This document shows positions 8,445 to 62,094 of a stretch of 64,000 nucleotides of DNA, one piece after another. This DNA is from Candidatus Micrarchaeota archaeon. GTDB lineage: Archaea; Micrarchaeota; Micrarchaeia; Anstonellales; Bilamarchaeaceae. Position 1 is the stretch's first letter. Each line of letters opens with the position of its first letter. The DNA lies in the NCBI GenBank assembly GCA_018812715.1, contig JAHJCT010000011.1, positions 114,614-178,613 on the forward strand. The letters are read 5' to 3'. Both the position numbers and the translations under genes were made by a program. Below the pieces are notes generated by a model. The model was not told the DNA's origin. It made no database searches and saw only the letters and a program-made list of their open reading frames with translations.

Positions 8445-8487
8445 TAGGTATCTACTTTTTATTTATTTCCCCGCCTTTAATAAAAAC

Positions 8488-17050: not shown

Positions 17051-17053
17051 GTT

Positions 17054-17278: not shown

Positions 17279-17334
17279 AGTTTCACCTCAAAAAATAAAA
17301 CCTCCATCTTATCTATCATCGTATTCTTTTTAAA

Positions 17335-17805: not shown

Positions 17806-17806
17806 A

Positions 17807-18523
17807 TTAAAACCTGAAAAATCTCTTCGCATTTTCGGTAGTCTTTGCAGCAACCTCTTCGGCATCAATTCCTTTAATTTCTGCTATATAAGTAACTGCA
17901 TCCCTTATTGTTTCGGGAGTTTTTCCTACATACGGAGAGTCACTTTCCAATACTAATCTATCAAGCCTTATATTATTTATAACCTTCCTGCGCTCTTTGG
18001 AATGGAGATGCGTAACTGATATATAACCTCCATTTTTTACTATTTCTACAGCCTGCTCCTCAGTTCCAGAGAAGAAGTGCATAAGTATTTTTTTACCTTT
18101 TAGTGTCTGAATTATCTCGTCTATAGCATTTTTCGGTACCTTATTCTCAACAGGGTTGTTCCTTGAATGTATTACAAGTGGAAGCTTCATTTTATCAGAA
18201 AGTTCTATCATTCGCTTGAAAACCTTTCTTTGTTTTTCAACATCTTCCATTGTCTGTGCCCATTTATAATCAAGGCCCACTTCTCCAATTGCATTTGGTT
18301 CATTATTCTCTATAAATTTTGTCCAATCATCGAGCTTAGATATATCATCTTTGATTGCTGTTTGGGGTGCAATGCCCAGTGTAAATGGATAGCCTTTACT
18401 TCTAGCTAACTCTACTGCTTTTTTATTTGAAGAGGGGGAATATCCAGCTACTACCGGGGTTATATCCGATGAAATCTCGTATTTTTTTATTTCAAACAAA
18501 TGGGTATGCGCGTCTATCAACAT
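17807..18523 (-). CDS. tatD: TatD-family metal-dependent hydrolase
   Basis: IDAHTHL, GEVGLDY, VIHSR and LESDSPY motifs of the TatD TIM-barrel deoxyribonuclease family. Confidence 0.85.
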   Translation of the reverse strand: MLIDAHTHLFEIKKYEISSDITPVVAGYSPSSNKKAVELARSKGYPFTLGIAPQTAIKDDISKLDDWTKFIENNEPNAIGEVGLDYKWAQTMEDVEKQRKVFKRMIELSDKMKLPLVIHSRNNPVENKVPKNAIDEIIQTLKGKKILMHFFSGTEEQAVEIVKNGGYISVTHLHSKERRKVINNIRLDRLVLESDSPYVGKTPETIRDAVTYIAEIKGIDAEEVAAKTTENAKRFFRF

Positions 18524-41930: not shown

Positions 41931-44900
41931 ATGCGCGCATATCTTTTATTATTATTGATGATTTTAGCAGGTTTATCTTTTTCTATCGACGTTTCAAGCT
42001 GTGAGAATATCACAGCACCTGGTGTTTATGAACTAACTACCAATCTTGTAGGTGCACCTAATAATGCCTCTGAAGTATCGAGTATTGACTGGGCATGTAT
42101 AAAGATAGCATCTTCAGACGTAGTCTTTGACTGTATGGGATATACAATAACAAACGACGGAACTCTAGCTGCTGCAGGTATCGTTGTTAATGGTTCTAGT
42201 GGAATTAACTATCCCAATGTAACAGTAAGAAACTGCCCTTCGATTACACAATATTACTATGGTATTTACATTTATCGAACTAATGAAACTACCGTCACAA
42301 ATGTAACATTGTATAACAACACATATTCATTTGCTTCCCTTATATCTGATTATCTTAATCTCACAAATAACACAGCTTACGATCAAACTGCTGGTTTTGA
42401 GATTATTGGTTGTGCTGGATGCAGTCTTATTGATAATGTTGTTTACGATATGTCAGATGTTGGTATTGCTAGCAGTGGCTGTTTTTATTGTAATTTTATA
42501 AATAATAGTATGTATGACGGCTCAGATTATGGATTTTATATTGAGCAAACTGGTGATACTAATTTTATCAATAACACAGTTTTTGATATCTCTAATGATG
42601 CATTTCATATCAGCGGTGCTAGTGATTGCAACTTCATAAACAATACAGTCTATAACAGCCTCGATGGTATGGACCTTTATATGACCAGCAATATGACTAT
42701 CATCAATAACTCATTTTATAACAACAATGAAGATGCTATTGAAATTTATGAAGGTGGCGATAACAATTTATCAAATAACGAACTCTATAACAATGAACGG
42801 GGCCTCAGCATATACAATGCTTCTGCAACACGTGTAATCGGAGATCATTATTATAACAACAGCATAGATATCTTCGTTAATGGAACAGGAATAACAGTCG
42901 ATCTTTCTGGTGTTATCTTTGATAATGATGCTGGAACACTGGCAGATTACACAAACATCTCTTTAACTGATACAGTTGCATCCATCTACACTATAGATCA
43001 CGCAGTTCAACCCGCAGCACTACCGCCCAATATGGCGTCATTTGAAAATAAATTTGTAAACATTACAAATCTAACAAGCGGGGTTTCAATAGATACTATT
43101 ATCTGGCACTGGACAGAGGCTGAAACTGCTGGTTATACTGAAGCTAACTTTGAATTATGGAAATATAATGTTTCAGGTTGGGCCGATACTGGTGCTACCC
43201 CCAATACCGCAACTAACACATTCACTTTAACAAATCTAAATCCGGCAAGCACTTATGCAATATTGCAAACAAGTGTTTGTCCAGTTATAAGTTCAAGCGG
43301 AACATATGCCCAACTAGGCGATCTTGTTGGCGCCCCCAATTCTGCAAGTCCAGTTTTCGGTTCTGTATGTGTAAAGATAACTGCATCTAATGTTGTCTAT
43401 GATTGTAATGGTTATAGTATCACTAATGACGGAACAGGTTCTGCTATGGGTATAATGATTGGCAGAACATCAGATCTTAATCCAGAAATAACAAATGTTA
43501 CCGTTAGAAACTGCCCAAGCGTTTCGCAATATACCTATGGTATTTATACTCGCGGAGCTAATGATAGTTTCATAATTAATTCTACAGTTCACAACAATGC
43601 CGGCTATGGTACTTTCTTTATGCTCAGTAATGATATCACTGTTATCAATAGCACCGCACATAGCAATGGACTTGATGGATTTTATACCTCTACAAGTTCC
43701 ACATTTACTAATTTCTCCAATAACACAGCTTATAACAACACTCGTAGTGGTTTTGTTCTTTTCCCGGGAGCTAATAGTACAGTTTTGGATAACACTGCAT
43801 ATAATAACACGGAATATGGTTTCTACTGGAGAATGAGTGGTGGTAGTAACGCCATCAATAACACAGCACACAACAACGGGCTGAGTGGCTTCTATCTTTA
43901 TGATTCAGATAACAATACTCTTTTGAATAATACAGCGTACAATAATTCAAATGAAGGTATTCTTCTCGTTGATTCCAATAACAATGAATTCAATAATAAT
44001 GAAGCATATGAAAATTATGTTGGTATCTCAACTTATCATTCAGACTACAATACTCTGCAAAATAACTCGGTTCATAACAATGTAATGACTGCCATTGTTG
44101 TAAATAGTTCTTCTTATAACAATTTGACTAACAATACTATCTATAATCATCGCGGAGCGATGGGGCCAGCATTTGGAATTTATGTTGAAGCATCATCATA
44201 TCAAAATCAAATTACAGATAATAACCTCACTAATAACACGGTTTGTATAGTCCTGGGGGCAACCAGAACTGCATTTAATGGCGGTAACAATTGGATAGTA
44301 AATAACACTATGACTGATGCATATATGGGTGTTTTCCTTTACCTAGCTGATAATACATCTGTAATAGAAAATCATATCAGCAATGTTCCGGAGACGAGTG
44401 CAATTATCGTTTTAGGTTCTGATATTTATGGCATGTTTGGCGGCGGATATCTAGGCGCTTACAACAATACTTTCATTGGCAATGTAATAGAAAACAGTAC
44501 TGGTTTCATTTTCTACATGGCAAATAACAATGTAATTCAGTCAAATATTATAGCAAATGCCACTGGCTACTTTAATTGGTCTGACGCAGGGATTTTAGAA
44601 AATTATACTGGTTTTTACTTCTATGAATCCAATTATTCAAATCTGTCTGACAATTTAGTATACAATCTTTCTGGTTACGCACTCCACATAATCGATTCAG
44701 AATCTGTTAATGCCTCTGATACACATGTTTATAACAATGATAGAGGTGCTCTGTTTGTTTCTGCTTCAGTAGCAACAAATCTTTACTTATCAAACTTCAC
44801 AATAGATAATCCATCAGGCAACTTCCAAAATTATACAAGCATCTCACTTACTGATGCTGTTGATGGTGACAGTAAATATACTATTAACTGGTCATTCAAT

Positions 44901-47900
44901 TCAACTGCTTTACCTGCCAATTACTTTTCATTTGAAGGGAAATATGTAGATATAAGTCAATACAAAGGAGGAGTACCTAGTATAATAGATTCAATTACAT
45001 GGACTTGGCTAAATTCAGAGTTGTCAGGATATGATGAATCCAGATTTGAATTATGGCAATATAATGGAACTTGGACCAATATGGGTGCAACATTGGATAC
45101 TGGAGCAAACGCATTGACAGTAACAAACCTGAATCCAGAAAGTACCTATAGTATACTACAAAGTAATCTGTCTACATGTATGCTGATCAATTCTTCAGGT
45201 TATTATCAACTTAATACTAATCTTCAGGGTGCTCCAATAAATGCTGCCCCTCTAACCGGAACTGCTTGTATAAAAATAAATAGTTCAGATGTAGTCCTTG
45301 ATTGTAATGGATTTACTATTACAAATAATGGAACTGCTGGAACTACAAGAGGTATTCTAGCGGTAGGTCCAATCTCAAACATAACAATTTTCAATTGTCC
45401 AGGAATTGCAAATTATACCAATGGTATTGAGGTCGTTGAATCTAATGATACCTTAGTTCTAAATAATACGGTCTATGAAATTGGCACCGATGGTTTAAGT
45501 GTAACAAACTGTACCAACTCTGAATTTATCAACAACACAGCTTACAATATTACAGATGATGCCTTTGACTTTTACAACTGTACCAATATTACAGTGATAA
45601 ATAATACTGGCTATTTGATATTTAGTGGTGACATCTTTGAAAATAGTCTTTGCAACAATTGTGATTTCATAGATAACAGTGCTCTTGGAGGATTCGCCGA
45701 TGCCTTTGACTTTAATTATTGTAATAATACAAACCTCATAAACAATACCTTAAGTTTTGCTTTAGATAATCTTGTGGAAGCAACCTATTCTATAAATTGG
45801 ACCGTAATTAACAATACACTTCACGATGCTGGAAACGATGCCTTTTTCTTTGGCGATGCTGTCAATATTGTTTTCCTAAATAATACTGTTCATGATATAC
45901 AAAATGAATTCTTTGATATTGAACTTTGTAGTAATTGTAACCTCACCAACAACACAGGTTACATGTCATATGCTGGGGGCGGACTTAATCTTATTGATTC
46001 CAATATCATTACAGTAACAAATAACACTTTCTATGATGTTACTCTTGATGCTTCATATGCAGAAAATTGTACTAATTGTAATTTCATAAATAACACCGCT
46101 TATAACTCCACTGATGCAGATATATTTGATTTCGACAGATGTACTAACCTTACAGTAATGAATAATAGTGGTTTTCTAACACTTAACAGCAACATCTTTG
46201 AAACTAGCCGCTGTAATAATTGTGATTTCATAAATAATCTTGCTATGGGGGCAATAATTAATGCTAGTAGCGCCTTTGACTTTGCTGCTTGTAATAATAC
46301 CAACATCATAAACAATAATGTAACCTGGAGTATTAATGATCTTGTGCAAGTAAGTTATTGTATAAACTGCAGTGTAATCAATAACACACTTTACTATGCT
46401 GGGGGAGATGGTTTTGCTCTTGGTAAATCTATCAATTTTACTCTTTTAAATAATACAGTCAATGGTGTTATAGATGACGGAGCTGATATAAAAGAGTTAA
46501 ATGATAGTATCATTAGAAATAATTTATTATATAATATATCTGATAACGGTATTGAATTTTCTGAATGTGATAATTGCACTCTAATCAACAATACTATTTA
46601 TAATGTAAGTATTAATGGCTATTACTTAGATGAGATGACTAATTGTGTTCTTATCAATAATACAGCCTATGATATTGGAGACGATGGATATGATGGTGGA
46701 GATTCAAGCAATACTAATTTCACAAATAATTTAGCTTATGATACTGGAGGTGACGGTTTCCAATTTGAAGACTCTACTAACATCATTTTCCTTAACAACA
46801 CAGCATACGACAACCCTGAGTTTGGGTTCAGCCTAAACAACTCGCCGAGCAACACTTTTGTCAATAACACAGCGTATAATAATGGATATGCTGGGTTTGC
46901 TGCATTCCTTGGCTCTAATGGCAATAATTTCACCAGAAACCTGGCTTACAACAATACTGGTTTTGCACTCCTTGAAGTTTATAATACCAATCTGGATTCC
47001 AATATTGCGAGAGATAGTGAGGGTTATGGGGTCCAGGTAATTGGTCTTATGCTAGGCATACCATTTGTTGATGATCTAGATGACGTTGGTTTCCTTTTCT
47101 ATGAATCCGATAGTTCTATTGTATTCAACAATAGTGCTTACAATTTCACAGGAAACATGAGCGGAGATGAAGAATCATATGGTTTTGTTGTTTACTTAAG
47201 CGACAATAACAACTTCACCAACAATCTTGCACATACTACTAATGATTCCGGCTTCTTATTGCTAAATTCATCTTACAATAATCTTACCAATAATACTGTA
47301 TATGACAACCGGGAAGCTGGAATAGCTCTTGAAGAGAATTGTACTTGGAATATTCTAACTAACAACACTGCCCACCATAATGGCCTTATCGGTATTAATC
47401 TACAAGATGGTCCTTTCGCAAACGGAATATATGGAACAAATGCTTATAGTAATGGCTGGTGTTCCTTCCAAATTTTTGATGCTGATACGAATGGCTTCAT
47501 TAACAATACAGTGACTAATGACACTGGTTTCATTGTCATATTTTCCAATGATACTCAAATCCTTTCAAATACTGTAGCCAACAGCAGTGGAAGTGGAGTA
47601 AGCTCTTATATACCAACAATTGATGATAGTGGTGTTGTTTTGATATACTCTAACTACACTAATATATCTGATAATGTGGTTTACAATTTAACCAACAACA
47701 CATCTCATGCTTTCTATCTTGATCAAAGCAATAACAATCTTCTCATAAATAATACAGCTTATATTAATGGAGAAACAGGTTTCTATGTGCACAACTCCCA
47801 TTACAATACCTTAGTGAATAATACTGATAACAACAACCATGAAGGTTTTATTATTGACAGTGGCTCGTCCTTTAATATTCTCTATAACAACACGGCCATG

Positions 47901-48446
47901 TTTGACAATGGTTATCAAGTACTTGGTGCTGCATTCAACAATTCACTGATTGATAATACGGCTTATTATATAGAAGACAATGGTTTCAGTGTAAAAAATG
48001 GTGGCTTCAATACTACATTGATAAACAATACTGCATTATTCAGTGATGAAGCAGGCTATCTCATTATGATGTCTGATAATAACACGCTTTTCAATAACAC
48101 TGCATATAACAACTATGCCAATGGTTTCGAAATATTTATGGCTGCGGATAATCACCTCATCAATAACACTGCATACGAAAATAATGAATCAGGTTATTCA
48201 ATTGGCATGAATCTAGTTCCAAACTACTTCTTCAACAACACCGCATACGACAACAACTTCACTGGTTTTATGATCATGCAGAATAATAATAGTGATTTCC
48301 AAAACAATACAGTTCATGACAATGGTCTCATGGGCTTCTTAATAGTCTTGGCTGGCCACAACAATTTCACTAACAATACAGCTTATGACGGCAATGTAAG
48401 TGGTTTCTGGCTGGGTATGGATTCACGTTACAATGTTTTCACATAA
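41931..48446 (+). CDS. giant secreted right-handed beta-helix (NosD/PbH1-like) repeat surface protein, N-terminal 2171-codon segment
   Basis: Signal peptide. Dozens of ~22-aa NNTAYNN..GF.L... parallel beta-helix repeats organised into three super-modules, each opening with C...(S/A)PG.Y.L..NL.GAP.NA(S/A). Ends at a single in-frame TAA, see findings. Confidence 0.7.
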   Translation: MRAYLLLLLMILAGLSFSIDVSSCENITAPGVYELTTNLVGAPNNASEVSSIDWACIKIASSDVVFDCMGYTITNDGTLAAAGIVVNGSSGINYPNVTVRNCPSITQYYYGIYIYRTNETTVTNVTLYNNTYSFASLISDYLNLTNNTAYDQTAGFEIIGCAGCSLIDNVVYDMSDVGIASSGCFYCNFINNSMYDGSDYGFYIEQTGDTNFINNTVFDISNDAFHISGASDCNFINNTVYNSLDGMDLYMTSNMTIINNSFYNNNEDAIEIYEGGDNNLSNNELYNNERGLSIYNASATRVIGDHYYNNSIDIFVNGTGITVDLSGVIFDNDAGTLADYTNISLTDTVASIYTIDHAVQPAALPPNMASFENKFVNITNLTSGVSIDTIIWHWTEAETAGYTEANFELWKYNVSGWADTGATPNTATNTFTLTNLNPASTYAILQTSVCPVISSSGTYAQLGDLVGAPNSASPVFGSVCVKITASNVVYDCNGYSITNDGTGSAMGIMIGRTSDLNPEITNVTVRNCPSVSQYTYGIYTRGANDSFIINSTVHNNAGYGTFFMLSNDITVINSTAHSNGLDGFYTSTSSTFTNFSNNTAYNNTRSGFVLFPGANSTVLDNTAYNNTEYGFYWRMSGGSNAINNTAHNNGLSGFYLYDSDNNTLLNNTAYNNSNEGILLVDSNNNEFNNNEAYENYVGISTYHSDYNTLQNNSVHNNVMTAIVVNSSSYNNLTNNTIYNHRGAMGPAFGIYVEASSYQNQITDNNLTNNTVCIVLGATRTAFNGGNNWIVNNTMTDAYMGVFLYLADNTSVIENHISNVPETSAIIVLGSDIYGMFGGGYLGAYNNTFIGNVIENSTGFIFYMANNNVIQSNIIANATGYFNWSDAGILENYTGFYFYESNYSNLSDNLVYNLSGYALHIIDSESVNASDTHVYNNDRGALFVSASVATNLYLSNFTIDNPSGNFQNYTSISLTDAVDGDSKYTINWSFNSTALPANYFSFEGKYVDISQYKGGVPSIIDSITWTWLNSELSGYDESRFELWQYNGTWTNMGATLDTGANALTVTNLNPESTYSILQSNLSTCMLINSSGYYQLNTNLQGAPINAAPLTGTACIKINSSDVVLDCNGFTITNNGTAGTTRGILAVGPISNITIFNCPGIANYTNGIEVVESNDTLVLNNTVYEIGTDGLSVTNCTNSEFINNTAYNITDDAFDFYNCTNITVINNTGYLIFSGDIFENSLCNNCDFIDNSALGGFADAFDFNYCNNTNLINNTLSFALDNLVEATYSINWTVINNTLHDAGNDAFFFGDAVNIVFLNNTVHDIQNEFFDIELCSNCNLTNNTGYMSYAGGGLNLIDSNIITVTNNTFYDVTLDASYAENCTNCNFINNTAYNSTDADIFDFDRCTNLTVMNNSGFLTLNSNIFETSRCNNCDFINNLAMGAIINASSAFDFAACNNTNIINNNVTWSINDLVQVSYCINCSVINNTLYYAGGDGFALGKSINFTLLNNTVNGVIDDGADIKELNDSIIRNNLLYNISDNGIEFSECDNCTLINNTIYNVSINGYYLDEMTNCVLINNTAYDIGDDGYDGGDSSNTNFTNNLAYDTGGDGFQFEDSTNIIFLNNTAYDNPEFGFSLNNSPSNTFVNNTAYNNGYAGFAAFLGSNGNNFTRNLAYNNTGFALLEVYNTNLDSNIARDSEGYGVQVIGLMLGIPFVDDLDDVGFLFYESDSSIVFNNSAYNFTGNMSGDEESYGFVVYLSDNNNFTNNLAHTTNDSGFLLLNSSYNNLTNNTVYDNREAGIALEENCTWNILTNNTAHHNGLIGINLQDGPFANGIYGTNAYSNGWCSFQIFDADTNGFINNTVTNDTGFIVIFSNDTQILSNTVANSSGSGVSSYIPTIDDSGVVLIYSNYTNISDNVVYNLTNNTSHAFYLDQSNNNLLINNTAYINGETGFYVHNSHYNTLVNNTDNNNHEGFIIDSGSSFNILYNNTAMFDNGYQVLGAAFNNSLIDNTAYYIEDNGFSVKNGGFNTTLINNTALFSDEAGYLIMMSDNNTLFNNTAYNNYANGFEIFMAADNHLINNTAYENNESGYSIGMNLVPNYFFNNTAYDNNFTGFMIMQNNNSDFQNNTVHDNGLMGFLIVLAGHNNFTNNTAYDGNVSGFWLGMDSRYNVFT

Positions 48447-50114
48447 AATACAGTATATAATCATAGCTTTGGATTTATGATAAATTCTAGTTTATCTAAC
48501 AACTTCACCAATAATATGGTTCATGATATTCTTTGGCAAGGTTTCAATTTCTGGAATGCTAGTGATTCTGTTCTTACCAATAATAATGTTTATGGAAATG
48601 ATGTAGGTATAGGGCTTGATACATGTGGAGATAATTATTTGATTAACAATGAACTCTATGATAATAGCATAGGCCTTGGCATCGTCAATTCTTCTGCAAC
48701 TTTTGTAACAAGAGATCATTACTATAACAATACTATTGATTTTGGAGTCAATGGAACCGGGATAACAATTAATCTCTCAGAAGTTATCTTTGATAATCCA
48801 TTAGGAAACTTTGTCAATTTCACAAACATCTCTCTAAACGACACAGTTGCATCTGCTTATTCAATAGATCATGCAGTCGAACCTGCTCCATTGCCAACCG
48901 GTGCAACATCCTTTGAAAATAAATTTGTAAATATCACTAATGCCACCTCAGGCGTTTCAATAGATTCCATCGTCTGGCATTGGACAGATGCTGAATCAGT
49001 AGCATATGATGAACCTGCGTTTGGAGTATGGGAATACGATGGTTCTTGGTCAGATACTGGAGCAACTCTTGATACTGCAGCAAATACTCTTAGCCTCAGC
49101 AATCTTGCTACATTCAGCATTTTTGCAATTCTAGAATCTCCTGAAGATGAAGAAAATCCAAGTGATGAAGATAAAGAGTTTAGTCTATCATTTGATTCAA
49201 CATGTGATGGCAATACTCTAACTGTTACTTATAATGGCAATCCAGTTCCTGGTGCCTCAGTCAATGTCTATAATCCAACTACTATGCAAACCATTGCCTT
49301 AGGTACTACAAATGTTAATGGTGAATTCGAATTTAGTGGTTGTGACCTTACGATCCAAGTTCATGTTAGCAAAACTGGTTACGATTCTGAGACAGTTACC
49401 GAGCAATTAATTAACTGCGAACTTTGCCTAGAAGAAGAGGAACATCTTGAATGTGTGGATGATTTATGCATTGTTGTTCCCGGTCTTGGTCCAAATCTTT
49501 GCTCTTTAGATGCTGACTGCATGGAACCAGTGTACGAATGTTACTCAGATAATGATTGTGACGATACTGACTACTGTGACATTCTAGAAGGCGAAGCTGG
49601 AGGCAATTGTTTACCTGTTACTGGCGACTGTGGTTATGCACAAAATCATACTTGGGTTCAATATGAGTGTGGAGTTGATCCAGAATGTGTCCTTTGCCCA
49701 GAAGGTTTAGTTTGTGTAGAACATCAATGTGTAGAGGCCAATCTTACTGGTCCAGGTGAAGGATTTGTAGATGCTGAGGTTGATATAATCGCTACAATCA
49801 ACAACGAAACTTGTGCTTACTGCGATATTGAAATTGTTGATCCAACTGGCGAGCATTTCACTGGTTTAACAGATGAAAACGGAAGGATCCAAGTTCCATT
49901 GAATCTCAAGGGTCAATATACAATTACGCTTCTACAAAATGGACAAGTACTTGCTTCAAAAACAGTAGATGCGATTCCAAAGGCCCCACCTACAGACGAA
50001 CCCCCCCCAACAGAAAAGATTGGTGAGGACTTTACCTGGCTGTGGTTATTCATACTTTTAGCTGGCTTCTTTATTCTGTTCTTCTACTGGAGACAAAGGA
50101 AAAAGAAGAAATAA
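48447..50114 (+). CDS. in-frame continuation of the beta-helix surface protein: C-terminal segment with Cys-rich domain, TM anchor and KKKK tail
   Basis: Same frame as 41931..48446 with no further stops. Repeats a 170-aa module of the upstream segment almost verbatim. Ends ...FTWLWLFILLAGFFILFFYWRQRKKKK. Lacks its own signal peptide. Confidence 0.6.
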   Translation, partial: NTVYNHSFGFMINSSLSNNFTNNMVHDILWQGFNFWNASDSVLTNNNVYGNDVGIGLDTCGDNYLINNELYDNSIGLGIVNSSATFVTRDHYYNNTIDFGVNGTGITINLSEVIFDNPLGNFVNFTNISLNDTVASAYSIDHAVEPAPLPTGATSFENKFVNITNATSGVSIDSIVWHWTDAESVAYDEPAFGVWEYDGSWSDTGATLDTAANTLSLSNLATFSIFAILESPEDEENPSDEDKEFSLSFDSTCDGNTLTVTYNGNPVPGASVNVYNPTTMQTIALGTTNVNGEFEFSGCDLTIQVHVSKTGYDSETVTEQLINCELCLEEEEHLECVDDLCIVVPGLGPNLCSLDADCMEPVYECYSDNDCDDTDYCDILEGEAGGNCLPVTGDCGYAQNHTWVQYECGVDPECVLCPEGLVCVEHQCVEANLTGPGEGFVDAEVDIIATINNETCAYCDIEIVDPTGEHFTGLTDENGRIQVPLNLKGQYTITLLQNGQVLASKTVDAIPKAPPTDEPPPTEKIGEDFTWLWLFILLAGFFILFFYWRQRKKKK

Positions 50115-50124
50115 TTTTTATATT

Positions 50125-50723
50125 CTAATTCTTTTTTACTTGATATAATAATATTTTTACTCGCCTTTTGACCATGATATCAAAACAACTGTAGTTCCAT
50201 TCATTTTCTATCTTATATCCATATCTTTTAAGAGAATTGTGGAACCTTTTAAAATTTTTTTGGTATGCATCAGAGTATTGGATCCAGATACTACCATCCT
50301 TTGATAAATAATTTCTAGCATCATTAAAAAATCTACCAACAACTCCATTATCATAAATTGCATGTAAACTAGGAACCTCTGGAACTCCCTCAGACCAAGG
50401 GGGTGCAAAATTATAGTGTCGAATACTCCATTTACTTTATCGAAAAGATTCCCTTCCAGAACAATTGCTTCTGGAACAAGCTTTTTTGTTGCCTCAACAG
50501 CAGCTGGATTTATATCTACTGCTATAACTTCCGTTGCCCCTTTTTCTAATGCCATCTTAGAAATAACTCCTGAACCGGGGCCTATCTCTAAAACCCGTTC
50601 TCCAACAAACATATTATTTTCATACTGTCTTATTCTATTCTTGGCAGGAGTTAGATATCCTTGGCTATTGATATAATCCCAACCTAAAATTTTAGATAGC
50701 ATCAATCTTACAAAAGTTCTCAT
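50125..50723 (-). CDS. NPPY-type (HemK/Mtq2-like) SAM methyltransferase interrupted by a single-nucleotide frameshift
   Basis: Frame A (50723 to ~50400) gives VLEIGPGSGVIS...VIAVDINPAAVE...VFDTIIL. An adjacent frame continues ...NFAPPWSEGVPEVPSLHAIYDNGVVGRFF... to a TAG at 50125-50127. The junction lies in a TTTT/CCCCC homopolymer region around 50395-50410. Confidence 0.5.
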
Positions 50724-50816
50724 ATTTATGACCTATATGAAATTTGTCAATTATATCTTTTCATTATATACAGTTAAAAATCTCGCCCCAATGATAACTT
50801 AATAAAATTCTTTAAG

Positions 50817-51374
50817 TCAAGAAATTTGTTCTTTTAGGATAAAATAAAGATCAAAATAATCACGTGGCTGGTTTCTTGTTATGGCAGCCCTGAGTTTTTC
50901 TGCTATGAGTTCATTGAAATTAAGAACATTTATTTCAAAATCCAAATTATAGAAATTATGAACTTTTTTCCTATCTATTTTGATGTGAATTGATGCTTTT
51001 CTATTTGCATCTAGAATAATATAATTGTTATTTGAAAAATAACTCTGATAAAAGATTTTAATTCTTACAAAATTCCTGCTTTCATTTTCATATTCTATCC
51101 TTCTGAAATGTTTTTTGTCATTTTTAACAATTTCTTCTATTTTTGCCTTAATCTGGGTTATTGGAATAGTTGCTGTAAAATCTGCATCTTCAGAAAGACG
51201 CATGTGGTCTAAGAAAATTTTATTCAGGGCAGTTCCACCTTTGAAATATATCCCTTCAAAATCTTTCAGATGATAGAGCAAGATTGTTAGGAAATAATCT
51301 TTTTCCAGATATATAAGATTATATCCAGTTTCAGCTGCAATATTCCGAAGTTTTGCTTCATTTATCCGATCCAT
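50817..51374 (-). CDS. AbiEii-family nucleotidyltransferase toxin (type IV toxin-antitoxin, DUF1814)
   Basis: IYFKGGTALNKIF is the GGTAL signature of the AbiEii/DUF1814 nucleotidyltransferase. 185 aa, downstream of and overlapping the putative antitoxin. Confidence 0.6.
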   Translation of the reverse strand: MDRINEAKLRNIAAETGYNLIYLEKDYFLTILLYHLKDFEGIYFKGGTALNKIFLDHMRLSEDADFTATIPITQIKAKIEEIVKNDKKHFRRIEYENESRNFVRIKIFYQSYFSNNNYIILDANRKASIHIKIDRKKVHNFYNLDFEINVLNFNELIAEKLRAAITRNQPRDYFDLYFILKEQIS

Positions 51375-51907
51375 TTTTTACTTTCCCTCTTTGATGCGAT
51401 TAAAAAATCATGGTCCTTTATTTTCCTTTTAACTGTTTTTCCTAATTTTCTCACTCGTCTAAACTTGAACACAGAGCCAAGTATTTTCATTGTCCCTTGT
51501 TTTTTTGTAGAAAATACATCTATAACTGTGGGCAACTGATCTATCAACCCCCAATAATTTGCAGCTGCTTTGCCACCTATGTAGTAATCCTTTCCATTGA
51601 ACATTTCATCTGCTATGATGAATGGGTGTTCTGCCCAGCCTTTGTAGGCCTTTATCGGAATCAAGTAATATTTTTCCTTGTTTATTCTCTCAATTCTTCT
51701 TTTTTTCCTTAGCCTGTGTACGTAAACATTCAATTCATTGTCAGATGTAAAAAACTTTCTGATGTCCTTCTTTGAGAAAAATCTTTTTTCCTCTAGTTCA
51801 AGGTATGAAACTACTTCAATTTCTTTGTTTGACAAACCTTTGATACGATGCTTCGTATCAAATTTTGGCGCAGTTTTTTGCAATCCTTTGATTTTCTTCT
51901 TAGTCAT
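51362..51907 (-). CDS. AbiEi-like antitoxin/transcriptional regulator
   Basis: ...YYIGGKAAANYWGLIDQLPTVIDVFS... matches the AbiEi C-terminal domain pattern (Y.sl.sAl.y.GL.dq.p..i.v). Basic N-terminus. Gene order antitoxin then toxin with 13-nt overlap. Confidence 0.5.
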   Translation of the reverse strand: MTKKKIKGLQKTAPKFDTKHRIKGLSNKEIEVVSYLELEEKRFFSKKDIRKFFTSDNELNVYVHRLRKKRRIERINKEKYYLIPIKAYKGWAEHPFIIADEMFNGKDYYIGGKAAANYWGLIDQLPTVIDVFSTKKQGTMKILGSVFKFRRVRKLGKTVKRKIKDHDFLIASKRESKKWIG

Positions 51908-52152
51908 GTTATGTTACACCAATATTAATGATATAGTAATATTACTGTAGCATAATCTTTATAAATATATTGTTCAAAACAGTCCAACATCCAACGTTTT
52001 CATAAAAGTCTTAGTTGTTGGGGTTTCGATTATATGTTAATATCAATTAACAAAAAATTTACAATATGATGATTAGAGTTAACAAAAGATCAAGAAAAAT
52101 GATATTAGTGTGGCAACATTCAGTAAGATAAATAACAAAAACCATAAATATC

Positions 52153-52306
52153 TGGCGCCCCAACGGCGATTTGAACGCCGAATTCAACCTGTCAGCTTGG
52201 CCTTTCGGTGAGAAACACCCAAAAAAACGAGAATGTGTTTTAGGGCGCCGTTTCCCAAAAGGCGCAACCGCAGGGTTGCGTCCTATCCAGATTAGACTAT
52301 TGGGGC
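52153..52306 (-). tRNA. tRNA-Arg (anticodon GCG) with 77-nt intron at the canonical 37/38 position, CCA encoded
   Basis: Minus-strand exons: GCCCCAA-TA-GTCT-AATCTGGATA-GGAC-G-CAACC-CTGCGG[intron]A-GGTTG-AATT-CGGCG-TTCAAAT-CGCCG-TTGGGGC-G-CCA. All stems Watson-Crick or G-U. T-loop TTCAAAT. Confidence 0.75.
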
Positions 52307-52420
52307 TCTAGAGACATATTTAAATATGTATAGCTTTTAAATATTGTCTACACTTCTGAGGTTAAAATAGCCTCAAGTGAATCTTTCTAGACGATTGTAT
52401 TTGTTGTTTTAGGTGATATA

Positions 52421-52567
52421 TTGCAAAGATGTATAACTTGCGGAAGAAATACTAAGAACTTCGCTCAGTTCCCCTGTGCAGAGTGCAGTGAGAAGATCAT
52501 TAGATGTGACTTCTGCAGAGAAAATAGAAACAAATATACTTGCAAGTGTGGCTTTACCGGCCCGTAG
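52421..52567 (+). CDS. small Zn-ribbon protein (4x Cys pairs) upstream of aEF-1beta
   Basis: TTG-initiated 48-codon ORF: (M)QRCITCGRNTKNFAQFPCAECSEKIIRCDFCRENRNKYTCKCGFTGP*. CxxC...CxxC...CxxC...CxC spacing. Position immediately 5' of aEF1beta resembles the conserved archaeal Zn-ribbon/EF1B gene pair. Confidence 0.45.
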   Translation: MQRCITCGRNTKNFAQFPCAECSEKIIRCDFCRENRNKYTCKCGFTGP

Positions 52568-55110: not shown

Positions 55111-55312
55111 GCAGGGGTGGCAGAGCGGCCAAATGCGCCAGCTTGAGGAACTTTTTTGGAAAAAAGTTCCACCAAAAACTGATTGTTTATGGTGGTTATC
55201 CAAATAAGTTGCGAAATGTTTAGGAAATAGCAGCCTGTTTTGGTTTCGCTTTTCCTAAAAGCGGAAGGCTGGTGGGTTAGTCCCTACGAGTGTTCGAATC
55301 ACTTCCCCTGCA
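55111..55312 (+). tRNA. tRNA-Leu (anticodon GAG), class II with long variable arm and ~118-nt anticodon-loop intron
   Basis: GCAGGGG-TG-GCA-GAGCGGCCAAA-TGC-G-CCAGC-TTGAGG[intron ~55149..55266](G/A)-GCTGG-TGGGTTAGTCCCTAC-GAGTG-TTCGAAT-CACTT-CCCCTGC-A. Acceptor fully paired. Intron begins with a perfect hairpin AACTTTTTT-GG-AAAAAAGTT. Starts 9 nt after the rpoD stop. Confidence 0.7.
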
Positions 55313-56532: not shown

Positions 56533-59500
56533 ATGCGATTTACATATTTTGTCTTGATTTTGGCTTTAATTAGCTTGGGATTTGCCATCTCACCTTTGGC
56601 CATTGATGTTCTAGAACCTGCTGGTGATATAGAAATAAACCAAAATAGAATATACAATGTAACTGTTAATGTATCATGTAATGTTGGAGATTGTGGAGAT
56701 GTTAATGTCTCTTTGGATAATTTTCCAACTTCATGTAAAGCAATCTTAGATCTAGGTCAAAGTATTGGCGATGGAGAGTATACTATATACCCAGCCAATC
56801 ATCCTTCTGGAATAGATGTTTATTGTGATATGACCACTGATGGCGGGGGTTGGACCTTGGTATTTGCAGGTATGGGAAGCACCTCAACTTATGCTTCTAC
56901 CTGGTCAGGCTGGTTTTCTGAAGGTTCAACCACAGAAATAACTGATAAAAGCACCGAAGGAAAAAGTCCAGCATATGATAGTGTTACAGTGAGTACTTTA
57001 ATGCTGGAGTCAACTTATGGAACAGACGGAATAATTATCGCAGATTTAGATCAAACTTATTCCAGTCTTCTGGATCTGGTTGGACCTGATCCAGGGTATA
57101 ATGATGGAAGCACTTCCTGGGATAATGGATTAAAAGGGCCATTTACTGCCAATTATCCTCATACTGGTGATCATTTTGTTAATGATTGGATTAGGATATG
57201 GGTTGGAGATGGAGATTATGATGAGCAGGATAGAGTTGTTTTTGCTACCCAACTTGGTGAAGGGGACTGGTCTGGTCATGATAATCCCGGTGCAATTGGC
57301 GGCGAATACCAAACAGCAAGAGATGGAAGTGATTGGTACTACGTATGGGTGAGAGAAGAAGGCACATATGAATCGTATTCTGATGTCATTACGATAAATA
57401 ATGGCGAATCCGAAATCGTAATCTTTTCAGTAAATGCAACTGTTATCGGAAATTACACTTATTATGCTTATGCAGAAGAGGTTTCTAACCCATCTGTCAA
57501 CACAACTAGTAGCACCTGGAATGTAACTGTATATCCCCCTATACAGGTTATTTTTTCATCTCCAGGAAAATATGTTTCTGGCAATGATGTTACCGTAAAT
57601 CTCACCACAAGGTATTTTGTGGAAGGTCTAGACAGTATCTGGTGGAATAATGGAACAGCAAACCAGACATATTCAGGAGAAACTACTGACTATTATCCAG
57701 ATGGGTTTTATACATTTACTGCATATGCCAATGACAGTGCTGGTTATCTGGCCTCAACAATACTAAATTTCAACGTCAATATATGTGGTTTGGAACTTGA
57801 TTCTGATTATACACTTGAATATGATCTTGATTGCAGTGAATATTCTGAAGCTGCAGTTATTATTACTGAAGAAAATGTTACTCTTGATTGTGATGGCCAT
57901 TCAATAATCGGTCCTGGTTATGATACAGGAGTTTATTCCGAGTATGATAATACTATTATACAAAATTGCATTATAAGTAATTTTAATGAAGGTATACAGT
58001 TCTATGATTCTTCTAATGGCTTTATAATCAACAATACTTTTGACTCAAATTATTATGGTCTTTGGCTTGGGGAAAACTCAGATAATAATATAGTTACTTA
58101 CAATACTTTCACTTCAAATGATTATGGATTTTATTTAGAATTTGCCGATAACAACCAAATAGGGCATAACACAGTTGATATGTCGTATTCTAATTTTGGT
58201 GATTCTTCCTGTCCCTTTGTTTATGCATGGAATGGCGAAGAGTATGACTTCATAACTGATTTTTCCAGCAGTGGCAGATTAGCAGCTTCGAGTAAGGGAA
58301 CCCCAAGGGTCTACTATGACTATGTGAAACTTTCAAATGAACAATTAAAACCAGAATCTGGTTTTTACCAAATTCAATTAACAGAAGAATACGATGAAAT
58401 CTCATATGTCGATGAGCTCACATTAATTACAATAGACCATCCATCTGATTATGATGTTTACACTGGATTTACTATGGATGATAAAAGCGATATTTATACA
58501 GTTAGCAAAACTTTATTGCCAATTGAATCATGTGTGGATGAATCAGGGCAGGATTGTACGTCTGAAGTTTCTACCAAGGATGGCATATATACTGAAAAAG
58601 CAGATGGTGTAAATAAAAAAACATTTGAGCTTGATCTTGGTGATCTTTCAGAAGATGTTAAATTAGTTATAACTTATGCAAAAGCTCTCGACCTTGATCT
58701 GGATGACGAGACAAGATCAATTCAGATAAAAAATTCAGAAGGTGTTTGGACTGATTTATATACTCATTCCGAGTTAATCTCTTCTCCAAATGCCCCAAAT
58801 ACCTATGTTCTTGATCTTACTGGGTTATTGGTCTATGATAATTCAGTAAAATTAATACTTCCAGAAGGATTAATTGACTATCTTGCAGTTGATACTTCGC
58901 CACAACAAGAAGTAGTTGTAAACGCATATTCTCCTGATTCTGCAAATCTACACTACCATGGTTATTCTGAAGATATTAGCAACGATGTAGTTGATTATGA
59001 TTATTATTCTCTTGCATCACTTCGAAATAACGAACCCACTGGTTACTTCACTAAATATGGAGATGTTAACGAACTCCTTACTTCAACTGATGATATGTAC
59101 GTTATCATGCACGATGGTGATGAGATTTCAGTTGAATTCCAATACAATGCTCCAGAAGAGGGGATGACAAGAGATTTCCTTGTTTACAGCTGGTATTACT
59201 ACAAACCTGCAAAGAAATTTTTAGATGATTATACTGTTGATCCATTACCATTTGTTGGCATGAGCACTTATCCATATCCAGAAGGAGAAACTTACCCACA
59301 AGATGAAGAACATCAAGCTTATCTTTCGGAATGGAATACCCGATATTACGAAAGACCAATGAGAATGGGCGGCTCATTACCGTATTCCTTCAATAATACA
59401 GTATTTGAAAATACTATTATAGGAAGTAGTTCTGGTTATGGTTTATATCTATACGAGGAAGATTCAACATTGTTGCTAAATAACAATATCTCAGATGTAG

Positions 59501-62094
59501 AGATTGGTATTTATCTAGAGGATTCAAGTTATACTTTAATTAGTGGAAACAATATATTCGATGTCGAAACAGGTATGTACCTTGGTGATTCTGATTATAA
59601 TGAAATCTATGAAAATGAAATAGAAGCTTTTGAGGGCAGAGGAATTAATGTTAGGTACTCTGATTACAATGAAATCTTTGATAATATACTCTTTGTAGAC
59701 AGTACCGATAATTGTGATTATGGCGGACCTGGCTGTGGAGGAATTTATGTCGTTGGCTGTTCTTATGTGAACATAATCACTGACAATGACATTACTTCCC
59801 TTTATGGTCATGGTATTGCTATCGGTGGTTGTGGCGAAGACAACGACTTCATTGGCAATACGCTAACTATAACTAACGATGAAAGCAACTACTACGCATT
59901 CTATGCCTTTGAAGGTGGTGATGGCTGTTCTTACTACAATACTTTCTTACACAACAGAATTTTCAGCGATTACTGGATCTATGATGATTGTGATGGAAAT
60001 GACTATAGCGATGATTATTCAGGAAATATCTACTATTTTGCAGATGCAACTCCAAGCTGGGAAGTGTACGATGATCTTTATGATACTACAGACCCAGAAG
60101 ATGGTTGGGCAGATGAAGGAGATTTTGTACCATTTAGTTATGGTACTTTAGAAGATGAAGATCTGTGGTATGATTATGGTGAAGATTGGCATCCAGCACT
60201 AACAGATGACCCATCCATACATTCAGTTGATGTTGAATTAGTTTCTCCTGAAGATGAAGCACAAGCGTTAAGTCCGATTATTTTTACTTACATACCATCA
60301 GTTGGCTGGGAAGGCCAAACTATCGAAAATTGCGATATAACTGTTCAAACTGTTGAAGGAGGAGAAGTAACTGAAATAGATCCAGGTGAACAAGATGGTT
60401 TAGTTGCTTTATGGCACTTTAACGATGATTATCTTGATTCATCAGGAAATGGCCATGATGGAACTCCTGAAGGTGATACTTATCTCACTCCTGATTCGCG
60501 ACTTGGCGATGGTGCGGTATTTCTAGATGGTGATCTTGATTATGTATCAGTGCCTGATTCAGGTGATTTTGATGATGGCCCTGATCTTACCTTTGCTGCA
60601 TGGGTACATTTTGATGGAGAATCTACAAATTGGAATAGAATAGTTTCAAAACGTCTAGATTGTTGTGATGGAGAACCGGGTTGGGAGATCACTCTCGATG
60701 GTGGTGATGGCACAGATATTTATGTATCTGATAATGGCTGGGGAGGATTTATCAACGGCCAGTGTGTTGACAGCTGGACTGATGGTAATTGGCACCATGT
60801 TGCTGTTACATACGATGAAGATACTGCATCAGTATATTGCGATGGTGAGTTCAAATTTTCAGGAGCAGTTAATTCAATAAGTCCAAATGACCAAGATTTA
60901 CTTCTCGGCAAAATTGAATCAGAAGATAGTACTAGTTGGGTTGGTGCTATGGATGAAGTTGCCATCTGGAATCGTGCTCTCTCAGAAGATGAAGTGGAAG
61001 AACTTTATACTAGCTATACTTACTATACTGACTCTTCCTCTTCAATAGATGAAGGTGAAGAAAATACATTCACAATGGAATTACCTGATGGTGAATATTA
61101 TTGGAGTGTTGAATGTACTGATAATCTGGATATAACTGGAGAATCGGAAACATGGCTTTTAACAGTTGGTGAAGAAGAACCTCCAGAAGAAGATGGTAAT
61201 CCATCTCCTTCAAAACCACAACTTTCAATTGATCTAGATAGTTCCTGTGAAGACAACACAATAACCGTTACAAGCAATGGCGATGAAGTTGCCGGCGTTT
61301 CAGCAACTGTCCTTAATTACGATACTATGACCAACATTGCAAGTGGAAACACAGATGCAAATGGTGAACTGAGCTTCAGTGATTGCGGCAAAACTGTAAA
61401 AGTAAGTGCTTCAAAATCAAATTACAAGTCTGCAACTGGCATATACACACTTGATGACTGCTGTGAAGAAGAACAAGTTGGTTGTATAGATGATTCAGAT
61501 TGTCTTTCAACAAAAGAATGTGTTAATGGTGCCTGCGTTGCTGTTGAATGTGAATGTGGCACAGTTCAAAACCACCAATGTGTTCCATATGACTGTTGCT
61601 TAGATTCAGACTGCAATGAAGGTGAAGTTTGTACTGAACATGCGTGCGTATCGGTTCCTGTTGAGCCAGAATGCACTTCTAATGATGACTGTGCTTCAGG
61701 AATGGAATGTAGTAATGGAATTTGCATTGAAGTCGAACCACCTGAGGATCTTGAAGATTTAGCGACCCAAACAATAAATACTGCTCAAGACGCAATAGAT
61801 ACTGCCAAATCAGAAGGCAAAGATACAAGTGAGGCAGAAGCAAAGCTTGCAGCAGCATGGGCCGCATATGAAGCAGGCAATTTTGAAGAAGCAAAAAATC
61901 TTGCAGAAGAAGCAAAGCAATTGGCACTCAATGCAGCTGCACAACCAGCAAATCAAACAGGAACAGAAATTGAAGTTACTGAAACTCAACAAGACAATAA
62001 TGTCGTCTTTGTAACTGTTTTCTTACTATTGGTATTAGCAGCATTATGCATTTACTGGGTTGTCTCACGAAAACCTGCTAAGAAGAAAAAATAA
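56533..62094 (+). CDS. giant mosaic surface protein: signal peptide, fibrinogen-related domain, beta-helix repeats, LamG/ConA-like lectin domain, Cys-rich modules, TM anchor and KKKK tail
   Basis: 1853 aa. SGIDVYCDMTTDGGGWTLVFAGMG is the fibrinogen C-terminal-domain hallmark. NosD-like beta-helix repeats (NCIISNFNEGIQFYDSSNGFIINNTFDSNYYGLWLGENSDNN...). LamG-like block (LDGDLDYVSVPDSG...LTFAAWVHFDG...WHHVAVTYDEDTASVYCDGEF). C-terminal Cys-rich module homologous to the 48447..50114 tail. TM VVFVTVFLLLVLAALCIYWVV followed by SRKPAKKKK. Confidence 0.65.
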   Translation: MRFTYFVLILALISLGFAISPLAIDVLEPAGDIEINQNRIYNVTVNVSCNVGDCGDVNVSLDNFPTSCKAILDLGQSIGDGEYTIYPANHPSGIDVYCDMTTDGGGWTLVFAGMGSTSTYASTWSGWFSEGSTTEITDKSTEGKSPAYDSVTVSTLMLESTYGTDGIIIADLDQTYSSLLDLVGPDPGYNDGSTSWDNGLKGPFTANYPHTGDHFVNDWIRIWVGDGDYDEQDRVVFATQLGEGDWSGHDNPGAIGGEYQTARDGSDWYYVWVREEGTYESYSDVITINNGESEIVIFSVNATVIGNYTYYAYAEEVSNPSVNTTSSTWNVTVYPPIQVIFSSPGKYVSGNDVTVNLTTRYFVEGLDSIWWNNGTANQTYSGETTDYYPDGFYTFTAYANDSAGYLASTILNFNVNICGLELDSDYTLEYDLDCSEYSEAAVIITEENVTLDCDGHSIIGPGYDTGVYSEYDNTIIQNCIISNFNEGIQFYDSSNGFIINNTFDSNYYGLWLGENSDNNIVTYNTFTSNDYGFYLEFADNNQIGHNTVDMSYSNFGDSSCPFVYAWNGEEYDFITDFSSSGRLAASSKGTPRVYYDYVKLSNEQLKPESGFYQIQLTEEYDEISYVDELTLITIDHPSDYDVYTGFTMDDKSDIYTVSKTLLPIESCVDESGQDCTSEVSTKDGIYTEKADGVNKKTFELDLGDLSEDVKLVITYAKALDLDLDDETRSIQIKNSEGVWTDLYTHSELISSPNAPNTYVLDLTGLLVYDNSVKLILPEGLIDYLAVDTSPQQEVVVNAYSPDSANLHYHGYSEDISNDVVDYDYYSLASLRNNEPTGYFTKYGDVNELLTSTDDMYVIMHDGDEISVEFQYNAPEEGMTRDFLVYSWYYYKPAKKFLDDYTVDPLPFVGMSTYPYPEGETYPQDEEHQAYLSEWNTRYYERPMRMGGSLPYSFNNTVFENTIIGSSSGYGLYLYEEDSTLLLNNNISDVEIGIYLEDSSYTLISGNNIFDVETGMYLGDSDYNEIYENEIEAFEGRGINVRYSDYNEIFDNILFVDSTDNCDYGGPGCGGIYVVGCSYVNIITDNDITSLYGHGIAIGGCGEDNDFIGNTLTITNDESNYYAFYAFEGGDGCSYYNTFLHNRIFSDYWIYDDCDGNDYSDDYSGNIYYFADATPSWEVYDDLYDTTDPEDGWADEGDFVPFSYGTLEDEDLWYDYGEDWHPALTDDPSIHSVDVELVSPEDEAQALSPIIFTYIPSVGWEGQTIENCDITVQTVEGGEVTEIDPGEQDGLVALWHFNDDYLDSSGNGHDGTPEGDTYLTPDSRLGDGAVFLDGDLDYVSVPDSGDFDDGPDLTFAAWVHFDGESTNWNRIVSKRLDCCDGEPGWEITLDGGDGTDIYVSDNGWGGFINGQCVDSWTDGNWHHVAVTYDEDTASVYCDGEFKFSGAVNSISPNDQDLLLGKIESEDSTSWVGAMDEVAIWNRALSEDEVEELYTSYTYYTDSSSSIDEGEENTFTMELPDGEYYWSVECTDNLDITGESETWLLTVGEEEPPEEDGNPSPSKPQLSIDLDSSCEDNTITVTSNGDEVAGVSATVLNYDTMTNIASGNTDANGELSFSDCGKTVKVSASKSNYKSATGIYTLDDCCEEEQVGCIDDSDCLSTKECVNGACVAVECECGTVQNHQCVPYDCCLDSDCNEGEVCTEHACVSVPVEPECTSNDDCASGMECSNGICIEVEPPEDLEDLATQTINTAQDAIDTAKSEGKDTSEAEAKLAAAWAAYEAGNFEEAKNLAEEAKQLALNAAAQPANQTGTEIEVTETQQDNNVVFVTVFLLLVLAALCIYWVVSRKPAKKKK

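Follow-up and report, generated by a model that had tools for sequence, protein, structure and literature searches.

The abiE locus and its genomic context

The DNA stretch analysed here (the window) comprises 64 kb of the genome of a Candidatus Micrarchaeota archaeon, a member of the DPANN archaea (contig JAHJCT010000011.1 of assembly GCA_018812715.1). Next to a tRNA-Arg gene it carries abiEi and abiEii, a pair of genes related to the AbiE toxin-antitoxin (TA) and abortive-infection (Abi) systems of bacteria. We propose that the pair is probably a horizontally acquired AbiE cassette, now eroding, in a high-turnover slot 3' of the intron-bearing tRNA-Arg(GCG) gene. The cassette comes with a conserved promoter and a predicted operator of its own; abiEi is intact and abiEii is truncated at its 3' end, and the content of the slot differs among relatives. 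All features of the region lie on the minus strand, in the order tRNA-Arg, spacer, abiEi, abiEii, gap and methyltransferase, at the following positions of the window:

52153-52306, minus strand: tRNA-Arg(GCG), with the 5' exon at 52268-52306, a 77-nt intron at 52191-52267 and the 3' exon at 52153-52190
51908-52152, minus strand: spacer from the tRNA-Arg 3' end to abiEi, 245 bp, GC content 0.245
51966-52144, minus strand: upstream part of this spacer, from the tRNA to the abiE promoter, AT-rich and without homology to other AbiE loci
51958-51965, minus strand: TATA box TTTATAAA of the abiE operon, an element found equally far upstream of abiEi in almost every homologous locus
51913-51951, minus strand: predicted inverted-repeat operator GCTACAGTAATATTA-N9-TAATATTGGTGTAAC, ending 5 nt before the abiEi ATG
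51362-51907, minus strand: abiEi, 181 aa, winged helix-turn-helix (wHTH) regulator and antitoxin, full length
50817-51374, minus strand: abiEii, 185 aa, DUF1814 nucleotidyltransferase (NTase) toxin, 3'-truncated
50724-50816, minus strand: gap of 93 bp from the toxin stop to the methyltransferase ATG
50124-50723, minus strand: Mtq2/HemK2-like methyltransferase, a core gene with a 1-nt deletion in the T run at 50407-50410

The layout is the one given in a preliminary description of this stretch: two overlapping minus-strand genes, then about 250 bp of AT-rich non-coding DNA and the 3' end of tRNA-Arg. The two open reading frames (ORFs) share 13 nt, and the same overlap is kept in homologous loci. 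The preliminary description had also called both genes very AT-rich. This is true of abiEii, whose GC content (0.286) is the lowest among the 59 ORFs of the window, about 3.4 standard deviations (SD) below the mean; abiEi does not fit this picture, since its GC content of 0.343 is only the 5th lowest (-1.1 SD) and its GC content at third codon positions (0.365) is the highest of all. GC content across the window is 0.366 ± 0.027 in segments of 550 bp, and the segments of lowest GC in the 64 kb fall at 50551-51450. The Lys/Asn/Ile bias noticed in both proteins proved to be strong, with a combined content of 0.31 in each, the top two values of the 59 ORFs (versus 0.215±0.044). The composition and codon use of both genes are atypical for the host genome, though not uniformly AT-rich.

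The tRNA-Arg gene escapes standard scans. Default ARAGORN and Rfam at its gathering threshold returned zero tRNAs across the whole window, and Rfam did not match it even at E ≤ 10 on 51900-52450, a failure explained by the intron. When introns were allowed, ARAGORN predicted a good cloverleaf with an encoded CCA and an intron placed one base 3' of the anticodon, the canonical 37/38 position. Five related loci (L012-L016, described below) hold an orthologous intron-bearing tRNA-Arg, with one base different in the 5' exon, an intron of variable length and a compensatory change in the T-stem. The gene is real, because relatives carry its orthologue at the same place and the pre-tRNA folds well (z = -4.3), and the earlier placement of tRNA-Arg beside the cassette is thereby confirmed. 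Its 3' end (52153) faces the cassette, on the same strand as the abiEi ATG (51907).

A second intron-bearing tRNA gene, tRNA-Ser(GGA) with a 118-nt intron (55111-55312, plus strand), lies directly after rpoD and was likewise missed by default ARAGORN and Rfam. A tRNA-Cys was also called at 16948-17968, with an intron of 927 nt, but it is probably spurious. We also considered a C/D-box RNA within the spacer (52061-52125, plus strand), where a C-box-like AUGAUGA and a match to snoR10 (21 bits, E 2.9) were seen; the D box (CUGA) is missing, and the match is probably due to chance.

An intact regulator and a truncated toxin

The upstream gene had been described as an AbiEi-like regulator, an assignment that is supported by the PADLOC AbiEi profile (1.3e-22) and by its predicted fold. 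In Pfam, AbiEi_4, the profile suggested earlier as a check, did not match the protein and AbiEi_1 remained below its cut-off (E 7e-4), as did TAA_AbiEi in NCBIfam. An AlphaFold2 model (predicted local distance difference test, pLDDT, 86) displayed a winged HTH followed by an α/β C-terminal domain. Its top three fold matches in the PDB were Rv2827c (MenA3) and the Streptococcus agalactiae AbiEi 6y8q, with probability 1.0 over 135-154 aligned columns. AbiEi, of the COG5340 type, and AbiEii, of COG2253, belong to a large, mostly DPANN-archaeal subfamily with members in metagenome-assembled genomes (MAGs) of the Micr-, Nano-, Aenigm- and Diapherotrites types, in which AbiEi measures about 165 aa and AbiEii about 244 aa. 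The AbiEi homologues align to residues 17-181 of the window protein, leaving a unique N-terminal extension of 16 aa (51860-51907, minus strand) for which disorder is predicted (pLDDT below 50). The pentapeptide KIKGL occurs twice here, 48 nt apart (ATCAAAGGATTG ... ATCAAAGGTTTG), so that the extension looks like a partial tandem duplication of the gene's own 5' end.

The downstream gene had been recognised as a GGTAL-motif nucleotidyltransferase of the AbiEii/DUF1814 type, and both Pfam PF08843 (E 1.8e-24, 87.5 bits versus a cut-off of 22.5) and the PADLOC AbiEii profile (2e-31) confirmed it. We found 600 homologues of AbiEii, and PF08843 was present in all among the matches listed. The protein contains KGGTALNK. 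Read against the motif definitions of S. agalactiae AbiEii (hG[GS]x15DhD with Arg, K...R, +DxxD; PMC3985639), its sequence keeps NTase motifs I-IV, namely GG46-47, R59/D63/D65 with the 15-residue spacing, K160...R167 and R171-D172-Y-F-D175. These motif residues are invariant across the homologue alignments.

The toxin is nevertheless short, at 185 aa versus 241-271 aa in every close homologue (58-77% identity; about 244 aa is typical). It stops right after ...YFDLYFILKE and ends in ...YFDLYFILKEQIS, where the QIS tail is non-homologous. The model of a full-length homologue (pLDDT 93.5), which best matched MenT4, JHP933 and MenT3, indicates what is missing: the window protein ends after the helix at 170-182, and the last ~60 residues, which form four C-terminal helices (residues 187-243 of the model), are absent. 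The lost columns hold residues that are near-invariant in homologues (L189, K193, F207, S215, W217, L224 and T225). It is thus not a full-length two-domain toxin, composed of an NTase core and a C-terminal helical domain. The 93-bp gap is too short for the missing ~180 bp of toxin sequence. In the gap and the 5' region of the methyltransferase, tblastn with 11 homologue C-termini yielded no remnant better than shuffled sequences, and the same was true of local DNA alignments with 10 homologue 3' ends.

Runs of four or five T are not error-prone in Illumina data. Sequencing or assembly error might still be suspected behind both the toxin truncation and the methyltransferase frameshift, as the source is a MAG and the methyltransferase defect sits in a homopolymer. 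An independent Logan assembly of SRR2540949 (L001), however, is 100% identical over 6029 bp spanning both defects, and the toxin defect is an absence of at least 90 bp rather than a base-call error, next to a gap that cannot hold ~180 bp. We therefore consider artefacts a highly improbable explanation for the two defects; for the toxin, the identity of the independent assembly means that the truncation is not an assembly artefact.

The loss of the last ~60 codons removed four family-conserved helices that form one of three contact surfaces with AbiEi, and because of this AbiEii is most likely inactive or crippled and the pair probably no longer a working toxin-antitoxin. In this situation abiEi most likely survives as an orphan regulator/antitoxin. 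Two observations argue against an inactive toxin, namely the retention of all four catalytic motifs and the size of MenT1, an active toxin of only ~190 aa. These could mean that the module still works as a TA/Abi system, with the 185-aa AbiEii acting as a functional "minimal" nucleotidyltransferase toxin under an intact AbiEi and operator. The GGT phospho-acceptor is also retained, MenT1 (189-195 aa) is related in structure, abiEi is undamaged together with its promoter and predicted operator, and the toxin ORF is free of internal stops. Yet the C-terminal ~60 aa, with their near-invariant residues, are present in all close homologues, and the truncation ends in a non-homologous tail instead. 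In the S. agalactiae complex, the C-terminal domain of the toxin is one of the three antitoxin interfaces (bioRxiv 10.64898/2026.01.19.700257). Clearly dead toxins beside an intact abiEi at other loci indicate that erosion is common, and we regard a functional minimal toxin as improbable.

For comparisons across the family, an AbiEi-profile scan of metagenome contigs provided a sample of 80 loci (referred to by L numbers). The toxin was deleted, internally deleted or frameshifted beside an intact abiEi in 9 of the 59 evaluable homologous loci. Toxin-first decay is a recurrent process in the AbiE family, and toxin-first erosion has been described for bacterial chromosomal TA systems (PMC13617665).

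A conserved promoter and a predicted operator

The TATA box and the inverted repeat of the window copy are intact. In nearly all loci, the TATA box is followed by a palindrome with the consensus GYTACACTAATATTA-N9-TAATATTGGTGTARC, which stops 1-6 nt short of the abiEi ATG; in AbiE subfamilies that are more distant, another palindrome occupies this place. Among 27 distinct loci, 84% of the cells in the 15+15-nt palindrome arms are complementary, versus 32-57% when the arms are slid against each other. Covariation between the arms amounts to 17 compensatory cells, a value that 0 of 500 shuffles reached. The palindrome is presumed to be the site of AbiEi autorepression, overlapping the transcription start, as expected of a dimeric wHTH autorepressor. 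Comparable inverted repeats are bound by the AbiEi of S. agalactiae (PMC3985639).

Conservation of the spacer is limited to this part. A blastn-short search of the 245 bp against 82 AbiE loci gave matches confined to the last ~65 nt. A 17-nt match between the spacer and the toxin gene of locus L008 raised the possibility of a fossil of an older AbiEii; this candidate was rejected, as an HMM run against every six-frame fragment of the window matched none of them.

A variable slot between tRNA-Arg and a methyltransferase gene

The space between tRNA-Arg and the methyltransferase is 1429 bp long in the window, and its only contents are abiEi and abiEii. Through homologues of the repaired methyltransferase (67-69% identity) we found related loci, L012-L015 and L016, with the conserved order rpoD-S11-S4-S13-EF1β, intron-bearing tRNA-Arg, slot, methyltransferase and a giant β-helix surface protein. 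Most of their flanking genes share 61-69% amino acid identity with the window, and S11 shares 88%. When S13 was used to scan a genome collection, the matches were limited to distant Micrarchaeota (44-46% identity) that lack the EF1β/tRNA-Arg context. The slots of the relatives are of similar size and hold other genes:

L012 lineage, slot of 1264 bp: a 368-aa protein (L012 6855-7961)
L016, slot of 1167 bp: a cytidine deaminase and a 186-aa acidic protein (L016 5133-5693)

The presence/absence comparison proposed in the preliminary description therefore has an outcome: abiE is absent from the orthologous site in L012-L015 and in L016. Since these relatives keep the flanks while holding unrelated genes in between, the AbiE pair is, as far as gene order can tell, accessory: it is the cargo of a variable slot that extends from the 3' end of the tRNA to the start of the methyltransferase. 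A defence function for the relatives' cargo was considered and rejected. Searches of Pfam, NCBIfam and PADLOC recognised only the cytidine deaminase, with no match for the 368-aa and 186-aa proteins, and the slot is variable rather than a defence hotspot.

The methyltransferase had been suspected of being both frameshifted and part of the same accessory patch. The first suspicion was correct and the second was not. One T has been lost from a T5 run (50407-50410), a defect also present in the independent Logan assembly; restoring it gives FDTIIFAPPWSEG, in agreement with FDTIIFA[AS]PWSEG of the relatives, and the repaired protein matches NCBIfam PRK14968 (1e-21) and TIGR00537 (5e-17). Its orthologues are intact, 199-208 aa long, 67-69% identical and in the same synteny, which identifies it as a core gene and not as cargo. 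The defect could be that of a real pseudogene or of a population variant.

The plus strand of the window also encodes very large Asn/Thr-rich repeat proteins at 41931-48446 (2171 aa), 48477-50114 (545 aa) and 56533-62094 (1853 aa). They carry many N-x-T/S sites and are apparently β-helix surface proteins; the one of 545 aa has a Cys-rich region and a transmembrane anchor at its end, and is syntenic with a giant ORF of L012. On the other side of the slot, between the tRNA and EF-1β, lies a 48-aa ORF with four cysteines (52421-52567, plus strand). Its similarity to the HVO_2753-like small zinc-finger family falls short of the Pfam cut-off (E 6e-6), and a tblastn search for it in the relatives' loci came up empty.

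Evidence for and against integration at the tRNA

The location of the pair directly 3' of a tRNA gene led the preliminary description to suggest a small integrated island. Its accessory nature, its position and its deviant composition agree with this suggestion, but a clear att duplication and an integrase are lacking. We searched for att sites using patterns at up to 3 mismatches, repeat finding, exact k-mer matching (≥10 nt) across 40-60 kb, and blastn-short with a word size of 6. This search of the flanks, which had been recommended as a check, uncovered no clear duplication of the tRNA-Arg 3' segment, and its sole candidate is weak (p about 0.005):

52145-52163, minus strand: candidate attL core TTGGGGCGCCAGATATTTA, comprising the last 8 nt of the acceptor strand, CCA and 8 nt downstream
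50775-50791, minus strand: candidate attR remnant TTGGGGCGAGATTTTTA (TTGGGGCG-AGATTTTTA), inside the 93-bp gap

The two candidates form a gapped, imperfect 17-nt match with a local score of 22, which was reached by 27 of 5000 shuffles and by 22 of 4124 window segments. The candidate attR has no CCA, a trait shared with the relatives' tRNA-Arg genes, and oligo-T comes after it; across 600 kb of related loci, its 8-mer is rare. These properties are suggestive, in that 50775-50791 looks like the displaced original terminus of tRNA-Arg. If integration at this core is true, the empty junction would read ...GCCGTTGGGGCG-AGATTTTTAACTG..., in which GCCGTTGGGGCG represents the last 12 nt of tRNA-Arg before CCA.

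Evidence from the wider family favours tRNA-linked mobility, judging from the arrangement of the loci. In four of 58 non-redundant other loci, a tRNA gene on the same strand has its end 250-400 nt upstream of abiEi, versus 0.08-0.19 loci expected (P ≤ 4e-5), and in each of these four the 3' end of the tRNA is duplicated. Perfect 17-nt copies of the tRNA 3' end bracket the cassette in L094 (tRNA-Gln) and L043 (tRNA-Glu); those of L094 lie at 349-365 and 2073-2089, and inner and outer repeat pairs are nested. The AbiE-containing segment of L043, which also holds a 280-aa ORF without a family match, is closed by a second att copy (7335-7351), after which comes a tyrosine integrase (Pfam Phage_integrase, 7485-8837). 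This pattern resembles tandem accretion, with an integrase-less unit beside an integrase-bearing one. A tyrosine integrase of the same Pfam family also occurs in L095 (6198-7464), next to a copy of a tRNA 3' end near the AbiE cassette.

The closest relative of the window cassette, in L097 (abiEi 90% identical in amino acids and 84% in nucleotides), carries GCCGTTGGGGCG 138 nt upstream of abiEi and in the same orientation, at a place where no tRNA gene is present. Apart from L097, the 12-mer is confined to genuine tRNA-Arg genes in the 600 kb of loci collected. Shorter versions of the tRNA-Arg terminus occur at -107 in L027 and at -91 in L009.

Many cassettes are also bracketed by repeats of other kinds. 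Direct repeats of 14-178 nt (82-100% identical) enclose just the two genes in 22 of 66 loci, without a recombinase inside, and are spaced ~1.33-1.75 kb apart. Examples are L019 (833-906/2240-2313), L081 (4727-4781/6262-6316) and L084 (4737-4839/6267-6369). Repeats with an offset of 1.3-1.8 kb were present in 15 of 63 loci, versus 2 of 253 pseudo-module controls (p = 7e-10). Their origin is heterogeneous. In L019 and L081 they consist of the 3' end of an upstream host gene that shows a diverged replacement tail, in L065 and L078 of the ends of downstream genes, and elsewhere of tRNA ends or of the 3' end of the toxin itself. A viral origin was considered and rejected, as relatives of AbiEi were not found in IMG/VR contigs.

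Several points weigh against our interpretation of the window as an integrated and eroding cassette. The slot has no integrase, its only ORFs being abiEi and abiEii, and none was found across the window with a local HMM built from two DPANN integrases, a search of low sensitivity in which phmmer and the HMM found only the query integrases. There is no direct repeat of ≥10 nt of tRNA-Arg within ±10 kb. The att candidate consists of only 8+8 nt and was found post hoc, at p about 0.005. From the core to the promoter, the sequences of L097 and the window cannot be aligned; therefore, a classical attP with conserved arms is not supported. Finally, the relatives used for the presence/absence comparison are distant (60-70% amino acid identity on flanking genes), and differential loss is possible.

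Such observations would be expected if no tRNA-targeted integration took place and the pair was exchanged in a plastic slot, through recombination between flanks or differential loss, with its position next to the tRNA being coincidental. Neither an integrase nor an unambiguous att duplication was found, the alternative cargo of the relatives also lacks flanking tRNA repeats, many AbiE loci adjoin ordinary housekeeping genes with no tRNA, and the heterogeneous repeats of the family fit recombination better than a single integrase. Coincidence is nonetheless difficult to reconcile with a tRNA adjacency far above chance in the family and with tRNA 3'-end duplications in all four other tRNA-adjacent loci. 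It would also leave aside the last 12 nt of tRNA-Arg next to the cassette of L097, and a candidate attR at exactly the expected place. We judge exchange unconnected to the tRNA to be unlikely, though it is the most serious of the alternatives considered here.

Proposed history and mechanism of the cassette

Based on these findings, we postulate that a ~1.5-kb integrase-less cassette was probably captured at the 3' end of tRNA-Arg. A later deletion would have removed the 3' end of the toxin gene and most of attR, leaving at most a 17-nt att scar. Before this deletion, the intact module would have been transcribed from the TATA-box promoter as a near-leaderless bicistronic abiEi-abiEii message. 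A dimeric winged-helix AbiEi would bind the palindrome between the TATA box and the ATG and repress the operon. It would also bind AbiEii and induce its auto-phosphorylation on the threonine of GGT (T48 here), keeping the toxin silent. Once freed, AbiEii, as a toxin of the DUF1814/MenT type, would add nucleotides to the 3'-CCA ends of tRNAs and translation would stop. This mechanism follows that of the family (bioRxiv 10.64898/2026.01.19.700257); it is taken over from bacterial homologues while the host is an archaeon, which counts against applying it here in full.

More tentatively, and with somewhat more doubt than belief, the window copy could represent a wider class. The archaeal AbiE pairs, of DPANN and others, might be minimal recombinase-less cassettes of ~1.4-1.6 kb (TATA box, operator, abiEi and abiEii) that insert at the ends of tRNA or protein genes with a replacement copy of the target end. 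They might be moved in trans by neighbouring integrases, in an accretion resembling that of cis-mobilizable elements (CIMEs), or by host recombination. The window copy would then be a tRNA-Arg-specific member, fixed by the deletion of the toxin 3' end and most of attR.

Relation to known systems

The archaeal pair has its closest known counterparts in AbiE of Streptococcus agalactiae and Lactococcus and in MenA/MenT of Mycobacterium tuberculosis (type IV/VII TA), which are likewise bicistronic, with the antitoxin preceding the toxin. The toxins share PF08843, motifs I-IV, the GGT phospho-acceptor and the MenT4/MenT3/JHP933 fold, while the antitoxins share a wHTH and a C-terminal domain and the Rv2827c/AbiEi fold. 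A palindrome, in the archaeal pair the predicted operator, lies in the promoter. In contrast to the bacterial systems, the archaeal subfamily has a shorter AbiEi (~165 aa versus 195-290) and a toxin of ~244 aa, an archaeal TATA-box promoter and a predicted operator abutting the start codon. The window toxin also lacks the four C-terminal helices, and the archaeal members are known here from sequence and models.

Similarities also exist with eroding TA systems of bacteria such as the type II TAs of Photorhabdus (PMC13617665), which occupy high-turnover spots without long-term linkage to their neighbours and lose the toxin first, whereas the antitoxin and promoter persist. The window differs from these in its host, a DPANN archaeon, in that AbiE does not belong to type II, and in decaying by a 3' deletion instead of point pseudogenisation. 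The ccdO157 system of E. coli is reportedly another eroding chromosomal TA system.

A third comparison concerns tRNA-integrated islets and CIMEs, which are att-flanked and integrase-less (PMC5704250, PMC7563491). As in these, the pair lies directly 3' of a tRNA and is absent from the syntenic site of relatives, and sister loci display att-like tRNA 3'-end repeats around an integrase-less unit, with an integrase-bearing unit next door in L043. Unlike CIMEs, the window has neither a clear attR nor an integrase, the unit is tiny (~1.4-1.6 kb, holding the TA pair only), and many members of the AbiE family are bracketed by repeats of protein-gene ends, not of tRNA.

AbiE is reported to be among the few defence systems that are enriched in DPANN archaea (PMC12988326). 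Both AbiE and this enrichment are already known, as is the acquisition of TA systems in turnover spots with pseudogenisation of the toxin, and the window is an eroding ordinary defence module rather than a new system. Meanwhile, we did not find the family pattern of integrase-less, repeat-bracketed ~1.5-kb cassettes with a tRNA link and a conserved putative operator described in the literature that we searched.

These findings have implications for annotation and for the understanding of AbiE in DPANN archaea. Any count of defence systems that treats the pair of the window as a whole AbiE would be too high. The tRNA-Arg gene, whose intron hides it from standard scans, deserves annotation, and the methyltransferase is to be annotated as a broken core gene and not as cargo. 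The TATA box and palindrome at the start codon, the decay of the toxin in 9 of 59 loci, the excess of upstream tRNAs and the direct repeats around one third of the cassettes provide testable handles on the spread and regulation of AbiE in DPANN archaea.

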